Below are positions 1,397 through 43,728 of a stretch of DNA of 44,362 bases, in pieces (positions within the stretch are counted from its first letter, which is position 1; every line of letters starts with the position of its first letter). The notes under the pieces were generated by a model that searched no databases, was not told the origin of the DNA, and saw only the letters and a list, made by a program, of their open reading frames with translations. The position numbers were made by a program, and so were the translations under genes. Source of the DNA: a phage; the sequence record PZ445525.1; one strand, 5' to 3'.

Positions 1397-2917
1397 ATGA
1401 CCGTTAACGTTGACAACCAGCACCCACTTTATGCGCGCATCGCGCCGGAGTGGAAAATGATCCGCGATTGTGTAGCAGGGGAGCGCGCCGTGAAGGCGTG
1501 CGGCCCCTTGTACCTGCCACACCCAGCCAGCGGCGATAACACCGACCCGAAATCACGGGCGCGATATAAGGCGTATAAGCAACGCGCTGTATTCCTGAAC
1601 GCCACCGCCCGCACACTTAACGCACTGTTAGGCGTTGCCTTTGCTAAACCGGTAAGTCTTGACCTTTCCGGGGCGATGGCGGACCTGATTGACGACGTAG
1701 ACGGCAGCGGTATGCCGCTGCCACAACTCCTGCGCGGTGCTATGTCGGAAGTGCTGCAATCAGGTCGTGCGGGCTTTATGGTGGACTACGATCGCCAGGC
1801 GCATTTTGATGAACTGGGTAACGTAGTGCCGCAGACAGCGGCTGAGATGGCGTCACATCGCCCGCTTATCCGCCTGTACACGGCAGAACAGATCATCAAC
1901 TGGCGGCAGACCCACGGCGTCGATACGCTAATTGTGCTGAAGGAAACGGACGAAATCAGCACTGAAGATCCGGACGATTTCGCAAACCACGAAGTAACAA
2001 TCTGGACCGAGCTTCGCATGATTAACGGTGCGGCACACGCCCGCCGCTGGTTTTATAACGCGGACACGTCCGAGGTGCAAATGGACTTGCCGCGTGGGTT
2101 TACCCGCACCGACCTTGTTCCGCTGGTGGATGCTGCCGGTCGTGCGCTTACTCAACTTCCGTTTTGCTGGTGCGGCGCGGTGGATAACAACGCAACGCCA
2201 GACGCCGCGCCGCTGGCGGATATTGCGTCCATCAACATTAAGCACTACAACGCCGAAGCGGACGTCGCCGAGATTGCGCACATCGTGGGTCAACCTACCC
2301 TGGTGACAACGGGCTTGACTCAATCATGGGCTGACAAGAATCTGAAGGGCGGCATTGCCCTCGGTGCGACTAAGGGCGTTATTCTGGGTCAGAACATGGA
2401 CGCTAAACTGATTCAGGCGGAGGAGCGCAACTTGTCGGTTGCACTGTGTGAGCGTCGCGAATTGCAAATGGCTAAACTTGGCGCGGCCCTGGTCGAGAAG
2501 GGGACCGCACCTAAGACGGCAACTGAAGCGGCCTACGATGCGCAGACTGATAACAGTATCCTGTCGCTTATTGCCGGTAACGTTGAGAAGGCTTTCAACC
2601 GCGCGCTGCAAATCGTCCAGCTATTCACAGGCGACACCGCCGACCAGCGTGTGACGCTGAATAAGTTCTACACCGAGATCACGGTTGATGCGCAGCTTAT
2701 GACCGCGATGATGTCGGGTGTGCAGACGGGTACGGTCCGCCTGGCTGATTTCATCAAGTGGATGATGGCGCAGGGTGTCATCGACGACTCGCAAACCGTC
2801 GAGCAGGTGGAAGACGAATTGCGAAATCAGAATCCATTGCCTCAAATGTCCCCTGATGCGGTAGAATCTACCGAAGAAGACCCGGACAAGGTAGCGGACA
2901 ATGGCGAAGACAATTAA
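1397..2917 (+). CDS. portal protein
   Basis: 506-aa ORF immediately after terL with RBS aaggaaacgacc; size and position typical of portal; acidic C-terminus. Confidence 0.75.
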   Translation: MTVNVDNQHPLYARIAPEWKMIRDCVAGERAVKACGPLYLPHPASGDNTDPKSRARYKAYKQRAVFLNATARTLNALLGVAFAKPVSLDLSGAMADLIDDVDGSGMPLPQLLRGAMSEVLQSGRAGFMVDYDRQAHFDELGNVVPQTAAEMASHRPLIRLYTAEQIINWRQTHGVDTLIVLKETDEISTEDPDDFANHEVTIWTELRMINGAAHARRWFYNADTSEVQMDLPRGFTRTDLVPLVDAAGRALTQLPFCWCGAVDNNATPDAAPLADIASINIKHYNAEADVAEIAHIVGQPTLVTTGLTQSWADKNLKGGIALGATKGVILGQNMDAKLIQAEERNLSVALCERRELQMAKLGAALVEKGTAPKTATEAAYDAQTDNSILSLIAGNVEKAFNRALQIVQLFTGDTADQRVTLNKFYTEITVDAQLMTAMMSGVQTGTVRLADFIKWMMAQGVIDDSQTVEQVEDELRNQNPLPQMSPDAVESTEEDPDKVADNGEDN

Positions 2918-4004
2918 TCAATATTTGGCGGATCGAATGATTCGCCGTCACATCTTCACCCAGCGCTTGAGCAATGATCAGGCGCGGAGGGTGCTGGCTA
3001 TGTGGGAGAAGTTCCGGCCCGCTTTGCTGGGCAAGTTGACCGAGTTACTTGATGGCAAAAAGTCCATGAGCAACAAGGCACTTACCACACTGTTAACGCA
3101 ACTCGACAAGACCGTCAAAACGGAACTGCGCGCCGAGTTTAAAGTGCTGGCGGAGAGCCTTCAGGAGTTCGCCGACACCGAGGCTGATTATCTCGCCGAT
3201 ACATTAACGGCAGCGATCCAGCCCGCGGTCGCCGTACCGGCTGTCGAGGTGGTGGGTGTTGTGACCGGCGCGCAGATCGCAGCGACTGCAATGAAAAACC
3301 CGTTCCAGGGAAACACCATGATGCAATGGCCCGATTCACTTTCCGAGTGGACCCGGACGCAGATCGGCAATCAGGTGCGCGCTGGATTCATCCAGGGCAA
3401 GCCTACTATTGAAATTATTGCGGACGTGAGGCGCGCGCTCGGCGGTCGTAGTGCGCAAGCAATCTCAAGCGTTGTTAAGTCCGCGGTCAACCACTATGCG
3501 GCGACCGCCCGCGAATTAATGGTAAAAGCCAATGACGATATTCTCGAAGGTCGCCAATGGTTGGCTACATTGGACACGCATACTTCTCCCATGTGCCAGC
3601 TACGCGATCGCCTGTTTTATCCAGTTGGTGTTACTCCCGACACAAAAGGGAAGCGCGGCGGGAAAGTGGTGGCGGGGTCACAATATGGCGCGGGTCCTGG
3701 CAAGCTGCATTATTGCTGCCGTTCGACGGAGACGTGGAAAGTCAAAGGTATGGAGGATTGGCCCAGTGGTAAGCGTCCGGCACTGAAGGCTGATGCGGGC
3801 AGATTGCTGAGTGAGCAGGTCGACGCGCAGACTGATTTCTTCTCATGGGTGCAGCGCCAGCCTCGCCATATTCTGGAGGAGTTATATGGGGTGCAGCGCG
3901 CAGATCAGATTATGCGAGGCGTGAAAGTGCCGAAGATGTTCACCGATACTGGCGAATTAATGACTATTGCACAGCTTAAAAACCGGGGGTTATGGCGTGA
4001 TTAA
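2901..4004 (+). CDS. head morphogenesis protein (Mu F / SPP1 gp7-like minor head protein)
   Basis: 367-aa ORF overlapping portal stop; position after portal; W-x-T-L-D-T-H-T-S-P-M-C region recalls the phage head morphogenesis domain (recollection, unsearched). Confidence 0.55.
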   Translation: MAKTINQYLADRMIRRHIFTQRLSNDQARRVLAMWEKFRPALLGKLTELLDGKKSMSNKALTTLLTQLDKTVKTELRAEFKVLAESLQEFADTEADYLADTLTAAIQPAVAVPAVEVVGVVTGAQIAATAMKNPFQGNTMMQWPDSLSEWTRTQIGNQVRAGFIQGKPTIEIIADVRRALGGRSAQAISSVVKSAVNHYAATARELMVKANDDILEGRQWLATLDTHTSPMCQLRDRLFYPVGVTPDTKGKRGGKVVAGSQYGAGPGKLHYCCRSTETWKVKGMEDWPSGKRPALKADAGRLLSEQVDAQTDFFSWVQRQPRHILEELYGVQRADQIMRGVKVPKMFTDTGELMTIAQLKNRGLWRD

Positions 4005-4305
4005 GTATGCCGCGATCGGATTGGTTATAGGTCTGGCGGTTGGATTCTGGCAGGGTGATTCCTACCGCACTGGCGTTGAGGCGAGAGCGGCGCAAGAAGC
4101 GCAAGCGAAAGCCCAACGGCAGCAAACTAAGGCTGTCGAGGGGTCTGTGAAGGCAGAACAGGCCCGCGACGTGGAATACAGGACCATCACGAAAGAGGTT
4201 GTAAAATATGTTACGCGTCCTAACCGTCCTGATTGTAGTTTTGATGCTGAGCGCGTGCGGATCAAGCAAAGTGCCATCGATGCCGCTAACCGAGTCGGTC
4301 TATAG
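3997..4305 (+). CDS. i-spanin (Rz-like); start uncertain (ATG 3967 or GTG 3997)
   Basis: N-terminal TM helix IKYAAIGLVIGLAVGFW then Ala/Gln/Lys-rich helical periplasmic part; contains an embedded out-of-frame lipoprotein ORF. Confidence 0.55.
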   Translation: MIKYAAIGLVIGLAVGFWQGDSYRTGVEARAAQEAQAKAQRQQTKAVEGSVKAEQARDVEYRTITKEVVKYVTRPNRPDCSFDAERVRIKQSAIDAANRVGL

Positions 4306-4438
4306 ACCGCCTTGCACCTTTGAGAATGCCTCGTCAGATCCAGACGAAGACTTGCTGGTTGATGTTAAGAATATGGAGTGTGGGGCGAAGCTGAGGGCGC
4401 AAGTGCTGGAGTTGCAGAAAATAATTCGGGGGCCGTGA
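4208..4438 (+). CDS. o-spanin (Rz1-like outer membrane lipoprotein)
   Basis: 76-aa ORF starting inside the Rz-like gene in another frame and extending past it; signal peptide with lipobox L-S-A-C; Pro-rich mature region; RBS agagg. Confidence 0.6.
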   Translation: MLRVLTVLIVVLMLSACGSSKVPSMPLTESVYRPPCTFENASSDPDEDLLVDVKNMECGAKLRAQVLELQKIIRGP

Positions 4439-4449
4439 TGGCCCCTTTT
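4428..4449. terminator. bidirectional intrinsic terminator between convergent genes
   Basis: GC hairpin ggggcc-gtgat-ggcccc followed by TTTT; overlaps Rz1 stop and lies 3 nt from the stop of the minus-strand gene. Confidence 0.55.
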
Positions 4450-4451
4450 CG

Positions 4452-5216
4452 TTAGCGCGGAATACCGCAAATCTCGTTTAACGTCTTCACGTCCAGCGCC
4501 ACCGCCGTGGACTTCGGTTTGTCCGGGTATGGAATGAACTGTTCCACTTCAGGCCACGCCTTGATCAGCTTCTTATCGGTATTGTGCATATCCAGCACGC
4601 CGGTAACGGTTAGTTTGAACGCGTCATACTTAGCTCGTAATTCGCGGCGGGCCTTGTCGTTACGGTCCAGGCGCTTACAGAAAGCATGATCTGCCGGGTA
4701 ATCCACGCGACCGCGCGGAAGATATATCGGCAGCGCTTTCCCGTCCTCGTCCAATTCACACACTGACGCGAGCATCTCTTCTTCGTATCCGGGTACAATA
4801 TCGCCGAGGTCAGGCGCGAGTTTGTTCATGTATTTGATGTCCCAGTATCCTCGATGTGTGCGGTTTTGGCGTCCGTCGCCACTCAATGACAAGGTGCGAA
4901 CATTTCCGCCTGCATTGATTTCGAAAGTGGCGTCATAAACGCTGCCGATACCTTTCGGGCGGTCGGTGTCATAACGATACTTCGCCTTGTTGGGGTAGAC
5001 GCAGACGCAGTATGTGGGTGACTCGGATCCTTCTAATGCTTCGATGTGTGCGCGTAACTCGGCGAACGTGCGAATGCCTTTTGGCATACAGTCCAGCGTA
5101 ATGGCGTACGCCAGGTCGCGAGAGTCCATCATAATGGATTTGGCTTCGGTCGTGATCGCATGGTCGCGCAGGATGTTAGCCAGAATCAGGTTTTTAATAT
5201 CTTTCGTCAGTCTCAT
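4452..5216 (-). CDS. hypothetical protein (reverse-oriented moron inside head module)
   Basis: 254-aa ORF from ATG 5216 with RBS gagga; the longer six-frame ORF (to 5624) adds a low-complexity N-terminus antisense to the scaffold gene, so the internal start is preferred. Confidence 0.6.
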   Translation of the reverse strand: MRLTKDIKNLILANILRDHAITTEAKSIMMDSRDLAYAITLDCMPKGIRTFAELRAHIEALEGSESPTYCVCVYPNKAKYRYDTDRPKGIGSVYDATFEINAGGNVRTLSLSGDGRQNRTHRGYWDIKYMNKLAPDLGDIVPGYEEEMLASVCELDEDGKALPIYLPRGRVDYPADHAFCKRLDRNDKARRELRAKYDAFKLTVTGVLDMHNTDKKLIKAWPEVEQFIPYPDKPKSTAVALDVKTLNEICGIPR

Positions 5217-5245
5217 TTGTGTGTCCTCGTTGTTGGTGTGCAACC

Positions 5246-5274
5246 AATATATGCAACCAATACGAGGATTGCAA
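5246..5274 (-). promoter_or_regulatory. candidate sigma70-type promoter for the reverse moron
   Basis: -35 TTGCAA (5269-5274), 17-nt spacer containing ATTGGTTGCA, -10 TATATT (5246-5251), second ATTGGTTGCA copy at the predicted start site. Confidence 0.4.
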
Positions 5275-5281
5275 GCGAATT

Positions 5282-5310
5282 TTGCGATTATTTTTATCGC
5301 TGATAATATT
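5282..5310 (+). promoter_or_regulatory. candidate promoter for scaffold/capsid genes
   Basis: TTGCGA, 17-nt spacer, TAATAT upstream of scaffold RBS aggggga; weak prediction. Confidence 0.3.
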
Positions 5311-5364
5311 AGAAGCGTGAAGTCGAGCGGGTGGCCTGCTCTGCCACAATCCCAGGGGGATAGC

Positions 5365-6069
5365 ATGAATCTTACTAAAGCAGAATATGACGCGTTGCCG
5401 GAAGGTATGAAGGCGCTTTTTGTTGCCGATGGCGACGGGTATAAATCAACATTCATGACCGCCGAAGAGGTACAGGCGGAAATCAAGGGTCTGAAAGACA
5501 ATAACGCTAAGCTGGTGAGCGAGAAGAAAGCAGAAGCTGAACGCCGCGCCGAAGCTGAGCGCCTTGCGAAAGAGAAAGAGGAAGCCGCCGCGCGCAAAAA
5601 TGGCGACCTCGAAGCGATCGACAAGTCCTGGAAGGATAAGTTTGCGAAACACGAAGCAGATACATCGGGAAAAATCGAAGCCTACCGCAAGCAGATCCAC
5701 GATCTCACCATCGGCAGCGCTGCCAAAGACCTGGCATCAAAGCTGTTCGGTAAGAATGCCGGAATCATGCAACGTCACGTTATGGATCGCCTGACGCTGG
5801 AAGACGGCGAAGACGGCAGCTTGAAAGTGCGTGTATTGCAGGATGGCAAACCGTCCGCTCTTACTATGGAAGAACTTGAAAAAGAGTTCCGTAATAACGC
5901 CGATTTTGCATCCGTCCTGGCTGGCACGCCAGCCGGTGGCGCGCCTAGCAAACCGACGCAGGTTGTCGAAGATGTGAAGTCGAAAATCACTATGGGCCAC
6001 AGCTTCGGTATCACTGACCTTACGAAACAGGCAGGTGAAATCATCGCTAAGATGGGCGACGACGAGTAA
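5365..6069 (+). CDS. capsid scaffold protein
   Basis: 234-aa Lys/Glu/Ala-rich helical protein (AEAERRAEAERLAKEKEEAAARK) directly upstream of the major capsid gene; RBS aggggga; the six-frame ORF start at 5014 is rejected because that part is antisense to the moron. Confidence 0.6.
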   Translation: MNLTKAEYDALPEGMKALFVADGDGYKSTFMTAEEVQAEIKGLKDNNAKLVSEKKAEAERRAEAERLAKEKEEAAARKNGDLEAIDKSWKDKFAKHEADTSGKIEAYRKQIHDLTIGSAAKDLASKLFGKNAGIMQRHVMDRLTLEDGEDGSLKVRVLQDGKPSALTMEELEKEFRNNADFASVLAGTPAGGAPSKPTQVVEDVKSKITMGHSFGITDLTKQAGEIIAKMGDDE

Positions 6070-6166
6070 GCAGATTGCCCGCGAAAGCGGGCAATTTTGC
6101 GAGCGCATAAATCTAAGGTAACATTAACGTCACTGGGCGAATGCTCACAACTCAAAGGATTTCGAT

Positions 6167-7267
6167 ATGTCTTTAACAGTGTTCCAGCGTAAACTCGTCA
6201 CCGCGGTTACGCAAATGATCCCCGACAACCTGAACGTGTTCAACGCTGCCGCTAATGGTGCTGTTGTTCTCGGCACAGGTGAAGTGCTGAAGGATGTTGT
6301 AGAGAAAATGTCCGTAGGCTTGATCGCCAACCTCGTTACCGACCGTAACGCCTATGCCCCTGTCGGTACTCCGGCAACCGCTAAAGTGCTGGCGCGTATG
6401 CTGACCAACTCGGTTAACCTTTCCGCGAAAGTTGGTCCGGTAGCAATCACGAAGGCCATGATGGCTAAAATCGAAACCAACGTTAACAGCGTTGCGGCTG
6501 AGATTGCGGCGCAGGCTACTCAAGCGATTATGCTGCACTACCTGAAAGCTGGTATCGGCGCAAGTAAAGCGGCGATCGAAAGCAACGCAGCGGCAAAATA
6601 CACCCAACCGGCGCGCGTTGACGGCGTTGGTGGTCGTACCTTCCCGACCCTGGCAGACTTCCCGCTGGCGGCTTCTAAGTTCGGCGATCAGGCGTCTTTG
6701 ATTAAGTCGTGGTTTATGGACGGCGTTACCTGGGCAAACTTCATTGCGTACCAGGCACTCCCTTCCGCTGAACAGGTATTCGCAATTGGCGATCTCCAGG
6801 TAATGGGTGATGGCCTGGGCCGTCGCTTCATTATCTCCGATGCCGCTGCCGATGCTATGGGCGCTGGCACAATGCTGGGTCTGGTCCCTGGCGCGGTTGC
6901 AGTTACCACCAACGGCCTCGATATGCTGGCGCAGGAAAAAGGCGGTAACGAGAACATCGAGCGCTGGTGGCAGGGCGAGTTCGACTTCAACGTGGCTGTT
7001 AAAGGCTATCGTCTGAAGGCGTCCGCTCGTACCCCGATCGAAGGCGTCCGCTCGTTCAAGCTGGACGATATCACCACTTCCGCTAACTGGGAACTGGACC
7101 AGGGCCAGGTAGACAACGCACCGGCAACCGTGCAGGATGTTGGCGCTGTGGGTGATGGCGATACTAAAGGTCGTCGTAAGACCCAGGCCGCACAGGCAGT
7201 GCCTACCCGTCACATCAAGGAAACCGCTGGCGTACTGGTTACGCTGACTGCGACCACCGCGTCTTAA
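6167..7267 (+). CDS. major capsid protein
   Basis: 366-aa ORF with RBS aaagga following the scaffold and followed by a strong terminator; Ala/Gly/Val/Thr-rich composition typical of HK97-fold capsid proteins. Confidence 0.8.
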   Translation: MSLTVFQRKLVTAVTQMIPDNLNVFNAAANGAVVLGTGEVLKDVVEKMSVGLIANLVTDRNAYAPVGTPATAKVLARMLTNSVNLSAKVGPVAITKAMMAKIETNVNSVAAEIAAQATQAIMLHYLKAGIGASKAAIESNAAAKYTQPARVDGVGGRTFPTLADFPLAASKFGDQASLIKSWFMDGVTWANFIAYQALPSAEQVFAIGDLQVMGDGLGRRFIISDAAADAMGAGTMLGLVPGAVAVTTNGLDMLAQEKGGNENIERWWQGEFDFNVAVKGYRLKASARTPIEGVRSFKLDDITTSANWELDQGQVDNAPATVQDVGAVGDGDTKGRRKTQAAQAVPTRHIKETAGVLVTLTATTAS

Positions 7268-16039: not shown

Positions 16040-16647
16040 CCACATTTAAATTGTACGGCGTATTAGGACGCCGATTCGGTAAAGTGCACAAGCTGGACTG
16101 TTTCACACCGGGCGAGGGTATCACCGGCCTGTGCGTGAAGTTGCCTGGCTTACAGGACTTTCTAATGTCGGCCCACCTGGACAACATGATGTTTAAAGTG
16201 CGCAAGGGCAATCACACTTTGACCGGCTACGACGAGTTAGGTGAGTTCCACGGCGACCGCGTAGTGACCATCGCGCCGGTTATGACTGGTGCAAAAAGCG
16301 GACTGGGCCAATTGCTGGCGGGTGTCGCGATCGTGGTGGCGTCGTTCTATACCGGCGGGCTTGCTACCGCCGCTTTCGGGGCTTCGGCGGCAACCGCTGC
16401 CGCTATAGGTACGGCGACGTTTTCGTTCGGCATGTCGCTTGCGATGGGCGGTGCTATGCAATTGCTGTCGCCACAACCGAAAGGATTGCAGACAAGGCAG
16501 GACGTGGATAACAAGGCGTCGTACGCGTTCGGCGGACCAGTAAACACCACCGCGCAAGGTACGGCACTTGGTGTATTATGGGGCGAGCGTGAGATCGGCG
16601 GCGCTATTATTTCAGCCGGAATCGTAACCGAGGATTTGAACGAATGA
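16030..16647 (+). CDS. tail assembly protein (gpI-like)
   Basis: 205-aa ORF overlapping the K-like stop; Gly/Ala-rich hydrophobic C-terminal half; conserved position before the J-like gene. Confidence 0.6.
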   Translation: MAMTTFKLYGVLGRRFGKVHKLDCFTPGEGITGLCVKLPGLQDFLMSAHLDNMMFKVRKGNHTLTGYDELGEFHGDRVVTIAPVMTGAKSGLGQLLAGVAIVVASFYTGGLATAAFGASAATAAAIGTATFSFGMSLAMGGAMQLLSPQPKGLQTRQDVDNKASYAFGGPVNTTAQGTALGVLWGEREIGGAIISAGIVTEDLNE

Positions 16648-19600
16648 CGATTATCTACGACGTCACTGGGCATAAGGGTGGCGGTGGTAAACAGCACACC
16701 CCGCAGGAAACGCCTGACAGCCTGCATTCTCTGGCTAAAATCCGCATCCTCCTTGCACTTGGTGAAGGGGAATTCGAAAGTATTACCAGCGCCAGCGAAT
16801 TGCGGCAGCGTGTATATCTGGACGGCACGCCGATCCAGAACGCCGACATGTCGGAAAACTTCCCCGGCGCGCGCGTGGAGTTCCGCCCTGGCACACAGCA
16901 CCAGGATGTGATCCACGGATTTTCAGCGGTAGAAAGCGAGCAATCCGTCGGTGTAAAACTGGAAAACGGCACGCCGTGGGTCCGCCAGATTAACGACACC
17001 AGTCTTGACGCCGTGCGCATTCGTGTCGGTATTCCGGCCCTGTACACCAACGAAGATAACGGCGATTTGGTTGGCGGGCGCATCGACTACAAAATCGTTG
17101 TGTACACCGACAACGCTGACCCGCGCGAGTTCAACTTCGCTGCCGTTGGTAAAACAATGTCGCTGTATGAGCGCGACCACCGCATCGAGCTACCGTCGAA
17201 CGTGAATACCGGCTGGCGCGTGGAGGTGCACCGCACGACGGCAGACTCCACATCGGCAAAAGTGGTTAACGATATCCAGGTGCAATCAATCACTGAGATT
17301 ATCGACGCCCGTCTGCGCTACCCGCTAACCGCGCTGTTGTTCGTGGAGTTCGACGCTAAGGCGTTCCAGAACATCCCGCGCGTGTCCATCAAGTGCAAAG
17401 GTCGCAAAGTGCTGGTCCCGAACAACTACGACCCGGTCAATCATACCTATTCTGGCGACTGGGACGGGACGTTTAAACGCGCATGGACTGATAACCCTGC
17501 GTGGCACTGGTATGATATTTGTATTACTGAGCGCTTCGGCCTCGGTCGGAGGATCAAGCCGCAAATGCTAAACCGTTACGCGCTCTACCAGATTGCGCAG
17601 CGCTGCGACCAGTTGGTCAGCGACGGAAACGGCGGACGGGAAATCCGCTTTAAGAATGATATGTACATCCAGTCGCAGACCGACGCATGGACCGTGCTTA
17701 AGGATTTAGCAGCCATCTTTGCTGGTATGACCTGGTGGGGAAACCAGATGTTGAATATCGTCAGTGACCAGCCGGTCGCAGCGGTATCGCACACTATCAC
17801 CAACGCCTCGGTAATTGATGGTCGATTCGACTACGCATCTGGGAGCCAGAAAACTCGCTATTCCACGTTCGCGGTAGCATACGGCAACCCGAAGAACCAC
17901 TACGAAGACGCCATCGCAACGGGCCAGCGTGTCGAACTGGTGCGCCGCCATAAAATCAACCGCCTTGATATTACGGCGATCGGCTGTACGCGTGAATCAG
18001 AAGCGCAACGCCGCGGTCACTGGGCGCTAATCTCCAACCAGCTTGACCAGCAAGTTAGCTTTAGGGTTGGCATGGAGGGACTTTTCTTTATTCCGGGTAG
18101 CGTAGTCGCGATCGCCGATACAAACATTTCTGGCGGCTTCGAGACACGCGGCGGTCGCCTGTTGCCAGATCCTGGCACGCGGACGGTGCTGAACACAGAC
18201 AGCGAAATCACGTTCCGCCCTGGCGATAAATTCCTGGTACGCACCGATAGCGGTAATGTGGAGACTCGCGAGATCGCCAGCGTCAACGGCAACAAGGTTA
18301 CGCTAAAAACCGCACTGGACGCAGACCCGATTCCTGATCAGCCGTTTTGCGTTGATGGCGATGATATCCAGTTGCAGAAGTTCCGCATCACCGACCTGGA
18401 ATATGACGACTCTACCAGCACTTTTTCAGTGCGCGGGGTCGAGTACAACGATAGCAAATATGATGCCGTTGATAATGGCGCTCGCCTTGATCCTGGTATT
18501 TTCACGCAAGTGCCAGACGGCGTAATGAAGGGGCCGGAGTCCGTGACCATCACCCCGTCGCAGATTTCATCGCAAGGCCAGCTAATCACCAACGTGGATA
18601 TTGTTTTCCCGCCGGTGAAGGATGCCGTTGTTTATGAAATCCAGTGGCGGCGTACCAGCTTGCAGAATATGGCGATCCAGTGGGGTAACGACTGGGTGAA
18701 CATCCCACGCACGGCATCGAACGGCGCGCACATCCCTAACGTGTTCTCCGGTAACTACCAGGCACGCGTCCGCGCGATCGGTATGGGCGAGATTTCGTCC
18801 CCGTGGGTGTCGTCCGCTATCACGCCGGTGGACGGTCGTCTCGGCGGGCTTAACGCGCCTATCATCACCAACGCGATTTCGGGCCTCCACCAAATTTTGT
18901 GGAAGTGGAACCACAACAACGCCGCGACGGATATCTCATACACCGAGCTTGAAGTGCGCAAGACTGGTGAAACGGAATGGAAGTTCTTAACCAACGTCCC
19001 ATATCCTGGGTCGGAGTATGCGCAAACGTCGCTGGAGTTCGGCATTTACCAGCAGTTGCGCGCCCGTGTGGCTGATAAAATCGGCAACCTGTCGGACTGG
19101 TCCGCCCCGTTTGAAGGCCAGGTGAGTGACAAAGTTGACGAGTACATGAAGGGGCTTGATGACGCGTTCTTGACTTCCGAGGATGGTAAACACTTCCAGG
19201 AAGCAATCGACACCATTCCGCAAGGCATTTACGAATCAATGCTAACGGACGCCCAGCAGCTATTCAACGCCCGCACCGAGTATAAAGGGATTTATGCAGA
19301 AATAACGGTGGCATATAACGTGGCGGCGGACGCCCACAAGGCGGTCGCTCAACTGGAGACGTTGATTGGCACGCGCCTTGACGACGCGGAAGCGGCGATC
19401 CACACGTTGCAGACTGCGCAAAGCACGCACGAACAAGCGTTCGCCCAGTACCAACAAACTGTTGCCGCTAAGTTCGGGGAACAGGAAGCTGCCATCCAGC
19501 AGGTACAAACGGCAACGGCAGACGTAGCGGGCGCACTGGCGGAGTATAAGACCCAGGTTGCGGCGCAGTTTGGTCAGCAGTCCGCAGCTATTGAGCAGAA

Positions 19601-20066
19601 GATGACGTCTTCGTTTAACCATGCTGGCGGCAGTGCCACATACAGCCTTAAGGCTGGCGTGACGTATAACGGGACTTACTACGATGCCGGTATGCAGCTT
19701 TCCGTCGTGGCGGAAGGTGGCGCGGTTAAATCCCGCATCGCGTTCAAGGCGGACCAGTTCTACATCATGCACCCATCTAACGGGTCGCTTTCGTCCGCGT
19801 TTATTGTAGACGGCGGGGCGGTGTACATCGACACGGCACGCATCAAGGACGCGACTATCAACTTCGCGCAGATCACGGACACGCTGCAATCTAATAACTA
19901 CGACGGCAGCACGCGAGGCTGGCGCTTAGGGAAAGATGGGACGTTTATCAACCTGGGAACCGGTAGCGGTGGCGGGGCGATGAAAATGACGAATGACACA
20001 ATCAGCGTCAAGGATTCTAACGGAGTTTTGCGGGTTCAGATTGGTAAAATCACGGGGGGTTGGTGA
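16644..20066 (+). CDS. tail tip / host specificity protein (gpJ-like)
   Basis: 1140-aa ORF last in the M-L-K-I-J series; C-terminal Ala/Gln-rich repeats. Confidence 0.8.
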   Translation: MTIIYDVTGHKGGGGKQHTPQETPDSLHSLAKIRILLALGEGEFESITSASELRQRVYLDGTPIQNADMSENFPGARVEFRPGTQHQDVIHGFSAVESEQSVGVKLENGTPWVRQINDTSLDAVRIRVGIPALYTNEDNGDLVGGRIDYKIVVYTDNADPREFNFAAVGKTMSLYERDHRIELPSNVNTGWRVEVHRTTADSTSAKVVNDIQVQSITEIIDARLRYPLTALLFVEFDAKAFQNIPRVSIKCKGRKVLVPNNYDPVNHTYSGDWDGTFKRAWTDNPAWHWYDICITERFGLGRRIKPQMLNRYALYQIAQRCDQLVSDGNGGREIRFKNDMYIQSQTDAWTVLKDLAAIFAGMTWWGNQMLNIVSDQPVAAVSHTITNASVIDGRFDYASGSQKTRYSTFAVAYGNPKNHYEDAIATGQRVELVRRHKINRLDITAIGCTRESEAQRRGHWALISNQLDQQVSFRVGMEGLFFIPGSVVAIADTNISGGFETRGGRLLPDPGTRTVLNTDSEITFRPGDKFLVRTDSGNVETREIASVNGNKVTLKTALDADPIPDQPFCVDGDDIQLQKFRITDLEYDDSTSTFSVRGVEYNDSKYDAVDNGARLDPGIFTQVPDGVMKGPESVTITPSQISSQGQLITNVDIVFPPVKDAVVYEIQWRRTSLQNMAIQWGNDWVNIPRTASNGAHIPNVFSGNYQARVRAIGMGEISSPWVSSAITPVDGRLGGLNAPIITNAISGLHQILWKWNHNNAATDISYTELEVRKTGETEWKFLTNVPYPGSEYAQTSLEFGIYQQLRARVADKIGNLSDWSAPFEGQVSDKVDEYMKGLDDAFLTSEDGKHFQEAIDTIPQGIYESMLTDAQQLFNARTEYKGIYAEITVAYNVAADAHKAVAQLETLIGTRLDDAEAAIHTLQTAQSTHEQAFAQYQQTVAAKFGEQEAAIQQVQTATADVAGALAEYKTQVAAQFGQQSAAIEQKMTSSFNHAGGSATYSLKAGVTYNGTYYDAGMQLSVVAEGGAVKSRIAFKADQFYIMHPSNGSLSSAFIVDGGAVYIDTARIKDATINFAQITDTLQSNNYDGSTRGWRLGKDGTFINLGTGSGGGAMKMTNDTISVKDSNGVLRVQIGKITGGW

Positions 20067-20089: not shown

Positions 20090-20704
20090 TCAATCATATT
20101 TAGCCGCATCTATTACGAGTATGGATGGCGAATAATAAACGCCGAGTGGCCCTGGTGTGTGGGCTACTTGCTTAGATATCGAATAAATGCTTGTTCCGGA
20201 TGCGCCGGATTGTGATTCATAAATAGCGTGCCCACCAATCTGAGGGGTGGGGACCGAGTTTATTGCCGTTTGTTGTGGCGATACGGCACATGTATACCCC
20301 AGATTAACATCAAAAGACAGACCATTTATCGGTATTTGGTGGGCCTCCAGCGGCAGCATTTTACCGTGGTACACCATATCCCCCGCAGAATTATAGAATG
20401 CGATCCCGTAGTCTCCTGGCGGGGTAACCATATCACTAAAAGCATATACTCTAATCCATCCTGGATTGTCGGTCTTGTCTAGCCGTAGCGCATGATAACC
20501 ACCATTATTTATGTGAGTGAATGCGGTGTACGCACGCCCGCCCATCCTCACAAAGAAAAAGCACACGCGATCGAATGGTATTGGCGTTGTAAAAACAGAA
20601 CCGCTATATACCCCCATATCACCGCGACTTATTAAATTAACAGGCGTAAAATCCGGGCTTAACCAAATGGACCCATCCGGCTTTGTGATCTGCATTCCGT
20701 ACAT
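20090..20704 (-). CDS. hypothetical protein (possibly C-terminal part of a split gene)
   Basis: 204-aa Gly/Tyr/Ser-rich ORF; its ATG lies 1 nt after the stop of the upstream ORF, separated by a G5 tract. Confidence 0.45.
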   Translation of the reverse strand: MYGMQITKPDGSIWLSPDFTPVNLISRGDMGVYSGSVFTTPIPFDRVCFFFVRMGGRAYTAFTHINNGGYHALRLDKTDNPGWIRVYAFSDMVTPPGDYGIAFYNSAGDMVYHGKMLPLEAHQIPINGLSFDVNLGYTCAVSPQQTAINSVPTPQIGGHAIYESQSGASGTSIYSISKQVAHTPGPLGVYYSPSILVIDAAKYD

Positions 20705-20705
20705 G

Positions 20706-20999
20706 TCACCCCCAATACGTATATATAAATCTTGATTCGCCAGCGTTAAAGCCGCTCCAGGAGACAGTGTTGTCGCTTACGGATATTGATGGCGCACCCC
20801 AAGATGTGCCGTTCCATGTATGCGTACCAACGTAACCCGCCTTTAAACTTTTCCCCGGCGGACGGTTGTGATACGTCTTGCTCCCGGATGGTTGTGTGAA
20901 TTTGTCGAGGAAAAAAACCGGCGTTAGCAGACCGGTTACATCCCTGCCGTGCTCGTCATAAATCGCGTACCCATAGTTACTCACTTTTACACTCCACAA
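20706..20999 (-). CDS. hypothetical protein (possibly N-terminal part of a split gene)
   Basis: 97-aa ORF ending TGG-GGG-TGA immediately before the next ATG; removal of one G would fuse the two ORFs. Confidence 0.4.
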   Translation of the reverse strand: MWSVKVSNYGYAIYDEHGRDVTGLLTPVFFLDKFTQPSGSKTYHNRPPGKSLKAGYVGTHTWNGTSWGAPSISVSDNTVSWSGFNAGESRFIYTYWG

Positions 21000-21246
21000 T
21001 TTCGAATTTATCTTCGCGTTGCCATCTGTGAACGAAAGTTACAAATTTCTGTGATGGGGCTACTCGGTATTGTTTTTCGCCAAATCGGTTTTCACGCACC
21101 GCGTTTAGTTTAACAGGGTAGCTATCGTTTACGGGGAATGTTTTAACCACATATTGGCCTGTGCAATTAATGGCCTTGTAGTTGCCGTCTGGTGGCGCTG
21201 AGCAACCCGCCAACAGAACCGCACAAATCATAATTAAAGTTTTCAT
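20977..21246 (-). CDS. small lipoprotein, candidate Cor/Llp-like superinfection exclusion protein
   Basis: 89-aa ORF from ATG 21246 with strong RBS aggag; signal peptide MKTLIMICAVLLAGC with lipobox L-A-G-C; located beside tail fiber/host-range genes. Confidence 0.5.
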   Translation of the reverse strand: MKTLIMICAVLLAGCSAPPDGNYKAINCTGQYVVKTFPVNDSYPVKLNAVRENRFGEKQYRVAPSQKFVTFVHRWQREDKFEIVECKSE

Positions 21247-40202: not shown

Positions 40203-40339
40203 GTGCGACGATCCGTGATATGCTGATGCACAACCGCTTTGAGATAGGCGGTCGGGTGTTCCGCAATTACTTCGTGGCGCGTGCCTGGGCGCGCCATATT
40301 GGCAAACCAGAGGGGGCAATACGATGCTACACGATTTGA
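40199..40339 (+). CDS. small hypothetical protein
   Basis: 46-aa ORF with ATGA overlap to the previous gene. Confidence 0.3.
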   Translation: MSATIRDMLMHNRFEIGGRVFRNYFVARAWARHIGKPEGAIRCYTI

Positions 40340-40611
40340 TATATTGGTTTGGATTGGCCTGGGGGCTATGCCTGATCACGGCAGTTCTGGGCGCGATATG
40401 GGTATTCCTGGTATGGCCAGCGGTGGAAGCTGCCAGTATTACCCGGATGACGTTCCAGATATACAAGCGCCGAGGCATCACGGATCACCCAACCCGGTTG
40501 CGCATGTGGTGGCTGTGGTATCGGGATATGATAGGCGGGCGAACATTCGAAGCCGTCCGATCATCCGGGTGGGAGTGGAAAGGCGTCGGCAAGTGGTCCA
40601 TTTTCGATTAA
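40324..40611 (+). CDS. small membrane protein
   Basis: 95-aa ORF with RBS gaggggg; two hydrophobic helices then Trp/Arg-rich tail. Confidence 0.5.
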   Translation: MLHDLIYWFGLAWGLCLITAVLGAIWVFLVWPAVEAASITRMTFQIYKRRGITDHPTRLRMWWLWYRDMIGGRTFEAVRSSGWEWKGVGKWSIFD

Positions 40612-40663
40612 TTATGCAAGCGTGATATAGTCCCAGTGAGCTAAAACTTACTGGGACTTTTTT

Positions 40664-40954
40664 ATGGATAAGATAAACGAGTGGCTATTTGCCCTTGCAT
40701 GTCTGGCTGGCGGCTTCGTAGGCGCACGCATTCATGGCGAGGCTACGAAAGGGCCGCTAAACTTCGTTTTATATATCGTTGTTGGCTTCCTGTGTGCCAT
40801 ATTTGGTGCGCCAGCTATCGCCGAGTGGGCGGGCTTATCAGGCGAGCGCACTGTCGCCGGTTTGGGCTTCGTAACTGCAATCTTCTGGATGCCAATAGCC
40901 GCCCGGATCAGGGAGACTATTGAGTCGTTCCGACTTCCGGGGGGTGCAAAATGA
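40664..40954 (+). CDS. holin candidate
   Basis: 96-aa protein with three predicted TM segments, two genes upstream of the lysozyme. Confidence 0.5.
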   Translation: MDKINEWLFALACLAGGFVGARIHGEATKGPLNFVLYIVVGFLCAIFGAPAIAEWAGLSGERTVAGLGFVTAIFWMPIAARIRETIESFRLPGGAK

Positions 40955-41196
40955 TTATCTCCGTCCTGTTGTTTGTTATCATAGGGGCTTCGTCCCTGTT
41001 TAACGTGTATGCGCCGTCCGTTCAGGATGGCATTTTCGGTCGGGTGTTATATCTGCTTACGGCGATGGTCTGCGTTATCGGACTGTTGCAAACAGGAGAC
41101 GTATCTGACACCACCTGGACCGCGCTAATCTGGCTGTTTGCATTGCGCACGCTGCGTAATGCTGTTTTGAATGGGGTAAAACATGCGATTCAGTGA
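40951..41196 (+). CDS. membrane protein (holin/antiholin candidate)
   Basis: 81-aa protein with three hydrophobic segments overlapping both neighbours. Confidence 0.45.
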   Translation: MIISVLLFVIIGASSLFNVYAPSVQDGIFGRVLYLLTAMVCVIGLLQTGDVSDTTWTALIWLFALRTLRNAVLNGVKHAIQ

Positions 41197-41674
41197 CAAC
41201 GGTCTACGATTTACGGCAGCATGGGAGACTTTCAGCCCAGTGCCGTATTTCGCGACTAAGAAAGAGCAGGCCCGCGGCCTGTACACCTGGGGCTATGGTC
41301 ACACCGGAACTAACCCGCCTCGAAGCATTACCCGAGCGGAAGCGCTGGAGCTACTCAAGCGCGATGTGGCGTATGCGGAAGATTGGGTGAACAAATACGC
41401 ACATCCGAGCATTAACCAGGCGCAATTCGACGCGCTGGTGGATCTGGTAATCAATGCAGGTCCGGGTCCGATCGTACCGGATAACATCGCGAACGATTTC
41501 GATGATGCGGTGCGCCTGGGTGACTGGGCGAAGGTCCGTGCTACGCTGCCGCAGTTCCGCAAGCAAGGCGGGGAAGTGCTTAAGGGTCTGGTCCGTCGGG
41601 CAATCGGCAGGCAAGCGCTATTCGATGGTAAGCAGTGGGACGTCGCCGAGAAGATCGGACGTAACGCAGCATAA
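41183..41674 (+). CDS. endolysin, phage lysozyme (GH24-like)
   Basis: A-A-W-E-T-F-S-P-V-P-Y ... T-W-G-Y-G-H-T and I-N-Q-A-Q-F-D-A-L-V-D-L-V-I-N-A-G match the Glu/Asp/Thr lysozyme pattern. Confidence 0.8.
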   Translation: MRFSDNGLRFTAAWETFSPVPYFATKKEQARGLYTWGYGHTGTNPPRSITRAEALELLKRDVAYAEDWVNKYAHPSINQAQFDALVDLVINAGPGPIVPDNIANDFDDAVRLGDWAKVRATLPQFRKQGGEVLKGLVRRAIGRQALFDGKQWDVAEKIGRNAA

Positions 41675-41690
41675 TACGAGGTAACACAGT

Positions 41691-42104
41691 ATGCTAAAAA
41701 GTATTCTTGATCATAACGCCGACGCGCTAGCTGCGCTGGCTAAAATCGAAGACCCAGGCGCACGCGCTATTGTAGCGGATACGATCAGCCATGCGGGGGT
41801 CTTCGACGCGAAGTTACCCAGCCCGCCGGAAAGTAAGCCAGTGGCAAGTGCGACCGTAACCATCACCCCAGTGTCCGCCGCAGTTGGTGCGACTGCCGCC
41901 GCTTCTGTTGCCGTCCTGCCATCCGACGCAACTAACAAGGCTGGGAAGTGGGTGTCTGCAAACCCAGAATGCGCGGCAATCGATCAGGCTACCGGCGAAA
42001 TCACAGCAAAATCGGAGGGTGGCGTCCACATCTTTTGGGTGGCATCCGATGGGGGCGGGGCGATGGCGTCCGCCATCTTCACCGTAACGGGAGCAGGGGA
42101 ATAA
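41691..42104 (+). CDS. bacterial Ig-like (Big_2-type) domain protein
   Basis: 137-aa ORF; T-V-T-I-T-P ... K-W-V-S-A-N-P-E-C-A-A-I-D-Q-A-T-G-E-I-T-A-K-S-E-G pattern typical of Big_2 domains. Confidence 0.55.
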   Translation: MLKSILDHNADALAALAKIEDPGARAIVADTISHAGVFDAKLPSPPESKPVASATVTITPVSAAVGATAAASVAVLPSDATNKAGKWVSANPECAAIDQATGEITAKSEGGVHIFWVASDGGGAMASAIFTVTGAGE

Positions 42105-42110
42105 ATCTAC

Positions 42111-42136
42111 AAGCCCGGAATTAACCGGGCTTTTTA
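42111..42136 (+). terminator. intrinsic terminator after lysis cassette
   Basis: hairpin gcccgg-aattaa-ccgggc followed by TTTTT. Confidence 0.6.
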
Positions 42137-42140
42137 TTGC

Positions 42141-42170
42141 TTGACTTGCAACCAACATAGAGGCCATACT
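42141..42170 (+). promoter_or_regulatory. candidate promoter with TTGCAACCAAC motif
   Basis: TTGACT, spacer containing TGCAACCAAC, CATACT; followed by palindrome TATTGGTCC-tc-GGACCAATA (42297-42316). Confidence 0.3.
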
Positions 42171-42343
42171 GCGACCAATAAACGAGAGGAGTAATACACT
42201 ATGGCACGTAATGATATTTGGGTATTGGCAATATTGTCCACCGCAGCATTTATCGGTATGGTTATTTGCGAACTGTCATAACCCGCCACAATAGGGACCG
42301 TGGTATATTGGTCCTCGGACCAATAACCAGGAAGTTAATTAAT

Positions 42344-43701: not shown

Positions 43702-43728
43702 CAGCCCGCCGATTTGGTGGGCTTTTTT
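43702..43728 (+). terminator. intrinsic terminator
   Basis: GC-rich hairpin (agccc...gggct) followed by TTTTTT. Confidence 0.4.

Follow-up and report, generated by a model that had tools for sequence, protein, structure and literature searches.

Does a pair of short, overlapping genes that lies among the head genes of a phage, and not beside its holin and endolysin genes, encode the spanins of that phage, and is such a position unusual? The question is raised by a locus near the start of sequence record PZ445525.1, a stretch of 44,362 bp (referred to below as the window) that represents the complete genome of a Dhillonvirus (HK578-like) siphophage of Escherichia coli. The original prediction proposed an embedded Rz/Rz1-type spanin pair at positions 3967-4449. 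Our analysis indicates, with a probability of roughly 0.9, that bases 3997-4438 encode the two-component spanin of the phage, with the genes for the inner-membrane component (i-spanin) and the outer-membrane component (o-spanin) in an overlapped arrangement. What was observed in support comprises the structure of the two genes, the topology signals in their products, the marks of purifying selection in both reading frames, the homology to spanin families and the absence of an alternative spanin candidate.

The i-spanin gene spans 3997-4305 on the plus strand and encodes 102 residues according to the listing of open reading frames (ORFs), the match to phrog_2536 and the annotation in GenBank. 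Its GTG start overlaps the stop codon of the upstream head-morphogenesis gene (GTGATTAA). This GTG and the preceding GGGG(G) are kept in all 16 sequences that were compared, and the same start was chosen in GenBank (MZ501097). The predicted extent holds in essence, and only its borders have to be moved: on the left side the feature does not start at the TTG of 3967, which is lost in two of the 16 sequences and would merely add the non-hydrophobic extension MHSLKTGGYG, overlapping the upstream gene. The protein has an N-terminal hydrophobic anchor, IKYAAIGLVIGLAVGFW, at about residues 3-18, with Lys3 preceding it. The Kyte-Doolittle hydropathy reaches a maximum of 2.05 at residues 1-15 and does not exceed -0.12 past residue 22. 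Thus, the protein has a single N-terminal transmembrane segment, as in a type II membrane protein (N-in/C-out), and no further hydrophobic segment. A single-sequence AlphaFold model of low confidence (predicted local distance difference test score, pLDDT, 58), which served for secondary structure only, has helices at residues 5-72 and 84-99 that are connected by a linker at 73-83. The sole cysteine of the protein, Cys80, lies at 78% of its length within this linker (TRPNRPDCSFD).

The o-spanin gene spans 4208-4438 on the same strand and encodes a precursor of 76 residues and a mature protein of 60, again in agreement with the ORF listing, the PHROGs and the GenBank annotation. The right border of the feature is thus the stop at 4438, and bases 4439-4449 belong to a hairpin and its tail. 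The ATG is preceded at a distance of 9 nucleotides by a Shine-Dalgarno-like AAGAGG (4193-4198, plus strand) that lies within the i-spanin coding sequence, and the aaagagg context is kept among the relatives. The N-terminus, MLRVLTVLIVVLMLSAC followed by GSS, contains Arg3, a hydrophobic core (Kyte-Doolittle 3.4) and the lipobox LSAC ending in Cys17. It passes a PROSITE-style lipoprotein rule (Cys17, Arg3 and an h-region that is free of charged residues), which bears out the lipoprotein frame that had been predicted to run past the i-spanin stop. The residue at position +2 is Gly and not Asp, and sorting to the outer membrane is therefore expected. The mature protein contains six prolines and two periplasmic cysteines, Cys36 and Cys58. 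Together with Cys80 of the i-spanin these provide periplasmic cysteines for disulfides in both partners, and they are invariant in the 16 sequences. The C-terminus of the o-spanin (AKLRAQVLELQKIIRGP) is non-hydrophobic, and the protein does not qualify as a unimolecular spanin of the T1 gp11 type.

In several public records the o-spanin has been called from an internal methionine, which yields products of about 47-52 residues that have neither a signal peptide nor a lipobox. Examples are Gluttony (NC_031113, 11253-11411, gp39) and SCS44 (5586-5729). The 47-position profile of phrog_5672 likewise covers only residues 32-76 of the o-spanin in the window. These calls are a systematic mis-annotation of the start codon, of the kind that Kongari et al. 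2018 (PMC6139136) have warned of.

The o-spanin ORF, which is in the +1 frame, opens inside the i-spanin gene, has 98 nucleotides in common with it and extends 133 nucleotides beyond the i-spanin stop. In the nomenclature of PMC6139136 this architecture is 'overlapped' (P2 type) and not 'embedded' (lambda type), so that the latter term, used in the original prediction, has to be replaced. A lipobox by itself says little about the reality of such a frame. The pattern was matched by 12 ORFs in the six frames of the genome, versus about four in shuffled sequence. As the regular expression is not discriminating alone, evidence from conservation and codon positions was needed. The comparison comprised 15 related contigs from IMG/VR, with 76-95% DNA identity over the pair, which together with the window make up the 16 sequences mentioned above. 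Both ORFs are intact in all 15 relatives, the ATG of the o-spanin is kept in each of them, the lipobox follows the pattern [LM][ST]AC throughout, and none of the four cysteines varies. Moreover, in the segment that belongs to the i-spanin only, the variable sites are distributed over codon positions 1/2/3 of the i-spanin frame as 23/12/44, and in the segment that belongs to the o-spanin only, over those of the o-spanin frame as 14/8/28. The overlap itself has a lower fraction of variable sites (0.30 versus 0.37-0.38). Considering that the ORFs are conserved and that the third-position variation switches frame at the overlap, the pattern of substitutions indicates that both frames are translated and are under purifying selection.

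The association with known spanins is clear at the level of sequence. The i-spanin matches phrog_2536 (E 3.2e-34), and the o-spanin matches phrog_5672 (E 1.2e-25) and phrog_1267 (E 1.6e-11), all 'Rz-like spanin' families. In GenBank the relatives carry the labels i-spanin and o-spanin (BASEL phages, MZ501097) or Rz-like spanin for both genes. A tblastn search with the i-spanin returned 611 phage records, mostly of Salmonella Jerseyvirus and Escherichia Kagunavirus. The protein identity is 86-98% to the i-spanins of other Dhillonviruses and 34-39% to those of Jerseyvirus and Kagunavirus (blastp, E 1e-14 to 1e-15), and the o-spanin is 47% identical to that of Kagunavirus (E 7e-17). The motif PPC...DEDL.VDV.N.EC is common to the spanins of the window and those of the latter two genera. 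In fact, HK578, JL1, SSL-2009a, SO-1, EK99P-1 and EP23 have been placed, with both components, in the overlapped 'Jersey' family (Kongari et al. 2018, BMC Bioinformatics 19:326, PMC6139136). The two genes are adjacent and, among the embedded, overlapped and separated arrangements, have the overlapped one. The pair thus has the structure of a two-component spanin and its sequence places it in the Jersey family. The feature has been annotated and catalogued before, and is typical of its phage group. A spanin pair outside the holin-endolysin cassette, as originally predicted, is in line with the PHROG matches, the GenBank labels and the listing of the Jersey family alike.

The pair sits, as had been predicted, between the head-morphogenesis gene (2901-4004, plus strand, phrog_241) and the scaffold gene (5365-6069, phrog_206). 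The distance to the lysis genes is another matter. Base 1 of the window is the A of the terL ATG, and the terS ORF leaves the window at its end, with a TAA stop that uses base 1. Moreover, when the last 3.5 kb and the first 4.5 kb of the window were joined, they aligned to Gluttony in a single unbroken block across the join. The contiguity in Gluttony and the overlap of the terS stop with the terL start imply that the window is a whole genome that was cut at terL, and the separation of about 36 kb between the pair and the lysis cassette, on which the original prediction had laid weight, is therefore an artefact of that cut. On the circular map about 6.7 kb separate the stop of the endolysin gene (41674) from position 3997, which follows it across the join on the same strand. 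The length of the window fits the range of 43-46 kb for Dhillonvirus genomes (PMC8594841), and public Dhillonvirus records are linearised at many different points. A look-up in the literature for the mode of DNA packaging in Dhillonvirus returned nothing. A megablast search of the region 3000-6200 against a phage collection matched 159 records, 139 of them with at least 80% query coverage. Nearly all of the matches were Escherichia phages of the genus Dhillonvirus, with PaulFeyerabend as the closest relative (93.4% identity).

Contrary to the suggestion that it is uncommon, the layout is conserved in Dhillonvirus, Jerseyvirus and Kagunavirus. In Gluttony the order on one strand is holin, holin, endolysin, small ORF, exonuclease, terS, terL, portal, head morphogenesis, Rz-like and Rz-like. 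In the Jerseyvirus ZCSE9 and the Kagunavirus SCS44 the spanins are likewise found between the head-morphogenesis and scaffold genes. The spanins of the Jerseyvirus SeF1 (Gp_009/010, phrog_2536/5672) are in gene order far from its holins (Gp_063/064, phrog_2359/2508) and its endolysin (Gp_065; PMC9409062), and the spanin and holin PHROGs of the window match those of SeF1. Since the layout recurs in the three genera, the arrangement is the norm for this phage group. In the neighbourhood of the ZCSE9 spanins a reverse-strand gene at 3319-3969, between the portal and head-morphogenesis genes, is annotated as 'endolysin (amidase)'.

The lysis cassette proper begins with a holin gene (40664-40954, plus strand; phrog_2359, E 1.5e-31, the same PHROG as Gp_063 of SeF1, PMC9409062). 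It is followed on the same strand by a gene for a second holin or holin-like protein (40951-41196; phrog_2508, E 1.8e-27; annotated as holin in Gluttony) and by the gene for an endolysin of the lysozyme family (41183-41674; PF00959, E 8e-21; phrog_7, E 8e-36). The neighbourhood of the endolysin was checked for another spanin pair and none was found, which agrees with the original prediction. Past the endolysin gene the order is an ORF at 41691-42104 and then the exonuclease gene, and none of the ORFs downstream of the endolysin has a lipobox or a membrane anchor. The product of 41691-42104 was considered as a cassette-linked spanin and rejected: it is soluble, with an immunoglobulin-like Big_2 domain, and therefore not a spanin. 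In the product of this plus-strand gene, Big_2 follows a small conserved module (phrog_11068) at the N-terminus, and some records call it 'major tail protein'. It is matched at full length in 18 of 94 related records. Its counterpart in Gluttony has only 53 residues, and bases 41828-42296 of the window have no match in that phage.

Directly upstream of the holin genes the plus-strand gene 40324-40611 encodes a membrane protein of 95 residues (phrog_2531). It too was rejected as a cassette-linked spanin, as it has no lipobox and lies upstream of a strong terminator-like hairpin. That hairpin (40629-40658, a 12-bp stem followed by five T) is the strongest of the region and divides the gene from the holins. 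The only other convincing lipoprotein signal in the genome is that of an 89-residue product on the minus strand (21246-20977, MKTLIMICAVLLAGC). As an alternative o-spanin it was rejected, being Cor-like (phrog_1119), encoded on the reverse strand and situated downstream of a long ORF (16644-20066). The gene belongs to a reverse-strand trio at 20090-21246 that encodes, besides the Cor-like superinfection-exclusion lipoprotein, two products labelled 'outer membrane protein' (20706-20999, phrog_557) and 'membrane associated protein' (20090-20704, phrog_425). We take the long ORF to be a gpJ-like tail-tip gene. The trio is probably a variable receptor-binding and exclusion locus, like the one described downstream of the gpJ homolog in the BASEL paper. 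No unimolecular spanin candidate was seen among the lipobox ORFs of the genome, in which C-terminal hydrophobicity was not scored separately.

Several observations weigh against the assignment as a spanin pair. With 102 residues the i-spanin is short compared to the 153 residues of lambda Rz. Its structural model is of low confidence (pLDDT 58, single sequence), and in a crude heptad count no more than 50% of the a and d positions were hydrophobic, so that a canonical coiled coil is unconvincing. The lipoprotein call for the o-spanin is rule-based. Scans of both products against Pfam and NCBIfam gave only sub-threshold matches: the best Pfam match of the i-spanin was DUF2570 (E 0.044, 14 bits versus a cutoff of 26.6), and the o-spanin scored 13.2 bits (E 0.074) versus a cutoff of 27 against the NCBIfam model NF038368 (P2_Rz1), which places it outside the P2 LysC family. 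The lambda Rz and Rz1 families were absent from the Pfam matches even at E <= 1, and membership of these families does not apply. The family assignment therefore rests on the PHROGs, BLAST and the literature. Finally, a literature search found no complementation or knockout of a spanin pair of the Dhillonvirus or Jersey type.

The last point also fits a different function. The pair might be a non-lytic envelope moron, consisting of a superinfection-exclusion or receptor-masking lipoprotein and a membrane partner that occupy a variable slot, with the outer membrane being disrupted by other means or its disruption being unneeded. That slot, flanked by the head-morphogenesis and scaffold genes, is indeed plastic, as it holds the reverse Nmad5 gene in the window and Hoc-like or small reverse genes in Jerseyvirus and Kagunavirus. 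Moreover, the pair does not adjoin the holin and endolysin genes, and the literature search revealed no experiment on the spanin family. Nevertheless, we consider this reading very improbable in view of the full diagnostic architecture, i.e. a type II membrane protein and an overlapping +1-frame outer-membrane lipoprotein with periplasmic cysteines in both. The pair is the sole such candidate in a genome that already has a Cor-like exclusion lipoprotein, and it is kept across three genera, in phages that would have no spanin without it. In T4, too, the spanin genes are not linked to those for holin and endolysin (PMC6139136).

Alternatively, only the membrane-anchored protein could be real and the +1-frame lipobox ORF a chance open frame. 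The frequency of the lipobox pattern relative to shuffled sequence would allow this, and several public records either omit the o-spanin or start it at the internal methionine (Gluttony gp39, phrog_5672). However, ORF, ATG, AAGAGG, lipobox and the three cysteines recur in 15 of 15 relatives at DNA identities down to 76%, the variation past the i-spanin stop is concentrated at the third position of the o-spanin frame, and the product shares 47% of its residues with a Kagunavirus o-spanin, by which the chance origin is effectively refuted. A pair that is genuine could still be vestigial or redundant, with an unrecognised factor of the cassette (40324-40611 or 41691-42104) disrupting the outer membrane. 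Two proteins without known function do flank the holin-endolysin genes, and lysis routes that lack spanins occur in other phages (Kongari et al., PMC6139136). That explanation is nonetheless hardly probable, considering the purifying selection on both spanin frames. In addition, the downstream product is soluble, carries Big_2 and is full length in a minority of the related records (18/94), and the upstream gene lacks a lipobox and is located before the strong terminator-like hairpin.

The assignment as a two-component spanin can be placed among the known systems. Compared with the Jersey family nothing of substance is different: the gene position and the overlapped +1-frame architecture are those of its Dhillonvirus members, and the PHROGs are those of SeF1 Gp_009 and Gp_010. 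The length of the overlap does vary, from 98 nucleotides in the window to 119-128 in other Dhillonviruses (where the i-spanin has 109 residues) and 155 in Jersey and Kagunavirus (PMC6139136 for the Jersey figure). The pair resembles LysB/LysC of P2 in that the o-spanin gene, in the +1 frame, opens within the i-spanin gene and extends beyond it, and in the predicted topology of the products. There is, however, no significant sequence similarity to the P2 proteins, with 13 bits versus the cutoff of 27 for NF038368. The genes lysB and lysC of P2 are part of the lysis cassette, beside holin and endolysin. Like Rz/Rz1 of lambda, the pair combines a type II protein of the inner membrane, whose periplasmic domain is predicted to be helical, with a small +1-frame outer-membrane lipoprotein. 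Both partners have periplasmic cysteines, and expression is probably late as well. Unlike Rz1, which is wholly embedded in Rz, the o-spanin passes the i-spanin stop, and the pair does not adjoin the endolysin gene. The i-spanin falls a third short of the length of lambda Rz, whereas the mature o-spanin, with 60 residues, exceeds the 40 of its lambda counterpart. In T4 the spanin genes PseT.3 and PseT.2 are also away from the holin (t) and endolysin (e) genes (PMC6139136), but there is no overlap between them, and a relationship in sequence to the pair was not seen.

The lambda Rz/Rz1 paradigm, in which the i-spanin is held in the inner membrane and the o-spanin in the outer membrane by a lipid anchor (summarised in PMC6139136), suggests how the proteins would act. 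The N-terminal helix of the i-spanin would hold it in the inner membrane, and a largely helical domain of about 83 residues would reach into the periplasm. The o-spanin would be exported and would receive a lipid at Cys17; after its cleavage by signal peptidase II it would be sorted into the inner leaflet of the outer membrane. Binding through the periplasmic C-terminal parts of the two proteins would then create a bridge through the peptidoglycan mesh. Once the holins (40664-41196) have permeabilised the inner membrane and the lysozyme-type endolysin (41183-41674) has destroyed the murein, the freed spanin complexes would fuse or disrupt the outer membrane and thereby complete lysis. By analogy to lambda we infer the lipidation, the complex formation, the disulfide linkage, the membrane fusion and the timing.

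The gene context suggests that the spanins would be expressed along with the late genes for packaging and for the head. The overlap of the GTG start with the stop of the head-morphogenesis gene suggests translational coupling, and no further coding unit would lie between the pair and a hairpin terminator. The hairpin in question is GC-rich (GGGGCC-GTGAT-GGCCCC, 4428-4446) and flanked by T-rich tails on both sides, which gives it a terminator-like score on both strands by pattern matching. It may constitute a putative bidirectional terminator that closes the block from terS to the o-spanin gene and, on the other strand, the convergent Nmad5 gene at 4452-5216, which ends there, in accordance with the shared terminator that had been predicted. 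The terminator-like hairpins on the plus strand (40629-40658, 42111-42132, 43703-43723 and 4428-4446) suggest, as matches to a pattern, three separate units, namely the lysis cassette, the exonuclease gene and the block that runs from terS to the o-spanin gene. The Nmad5 gene is the lone reverse gene between the o-spanin and scaffold genes. Its product is a full-length Nmad5 protein (nucleotide modification associated domain 5; PF18757, E 3e-53; phrog_1965), its position is conserved in Dhillonviruses, and it is preceded by a promoter-like site at 5274-5246 on the minus strand.

With two holins, an endolysin and a two-component spanin the phage has a full set of lysis genes. For the annotation of this group the i-spanin should be called from the GTG at 3997 and the o-spanin from the ATG at 4208, as otherwise the lipoprotein signal is lost. 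More generally, a linearised map of a circular genome can give misleading distances. The spanins end the block of terminase, portal and minor capsid genes in Dhillonvirus, Jerseyvirus and Kagunavirus. In this phage they are, in addition, probably coupled in translation to the head-morphogenesis gene, and terminator-like hairpins divide them from the holin-endolysin unit. One could speculate that this conserved placement is not neutral, in that it sets the dosage or timing of the spanins apart from those of the holin and endolysin, or ties their supply to head assembly. We consider this unlikely. If true, the group would follow a regulatory logic that is distinct from the single lysis cassette of the lambda type. 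As it stands, this phage group keeps its spanins in the head-gene block and not in the lysis cassette, which matters little beyond the correct annotation of the genes.

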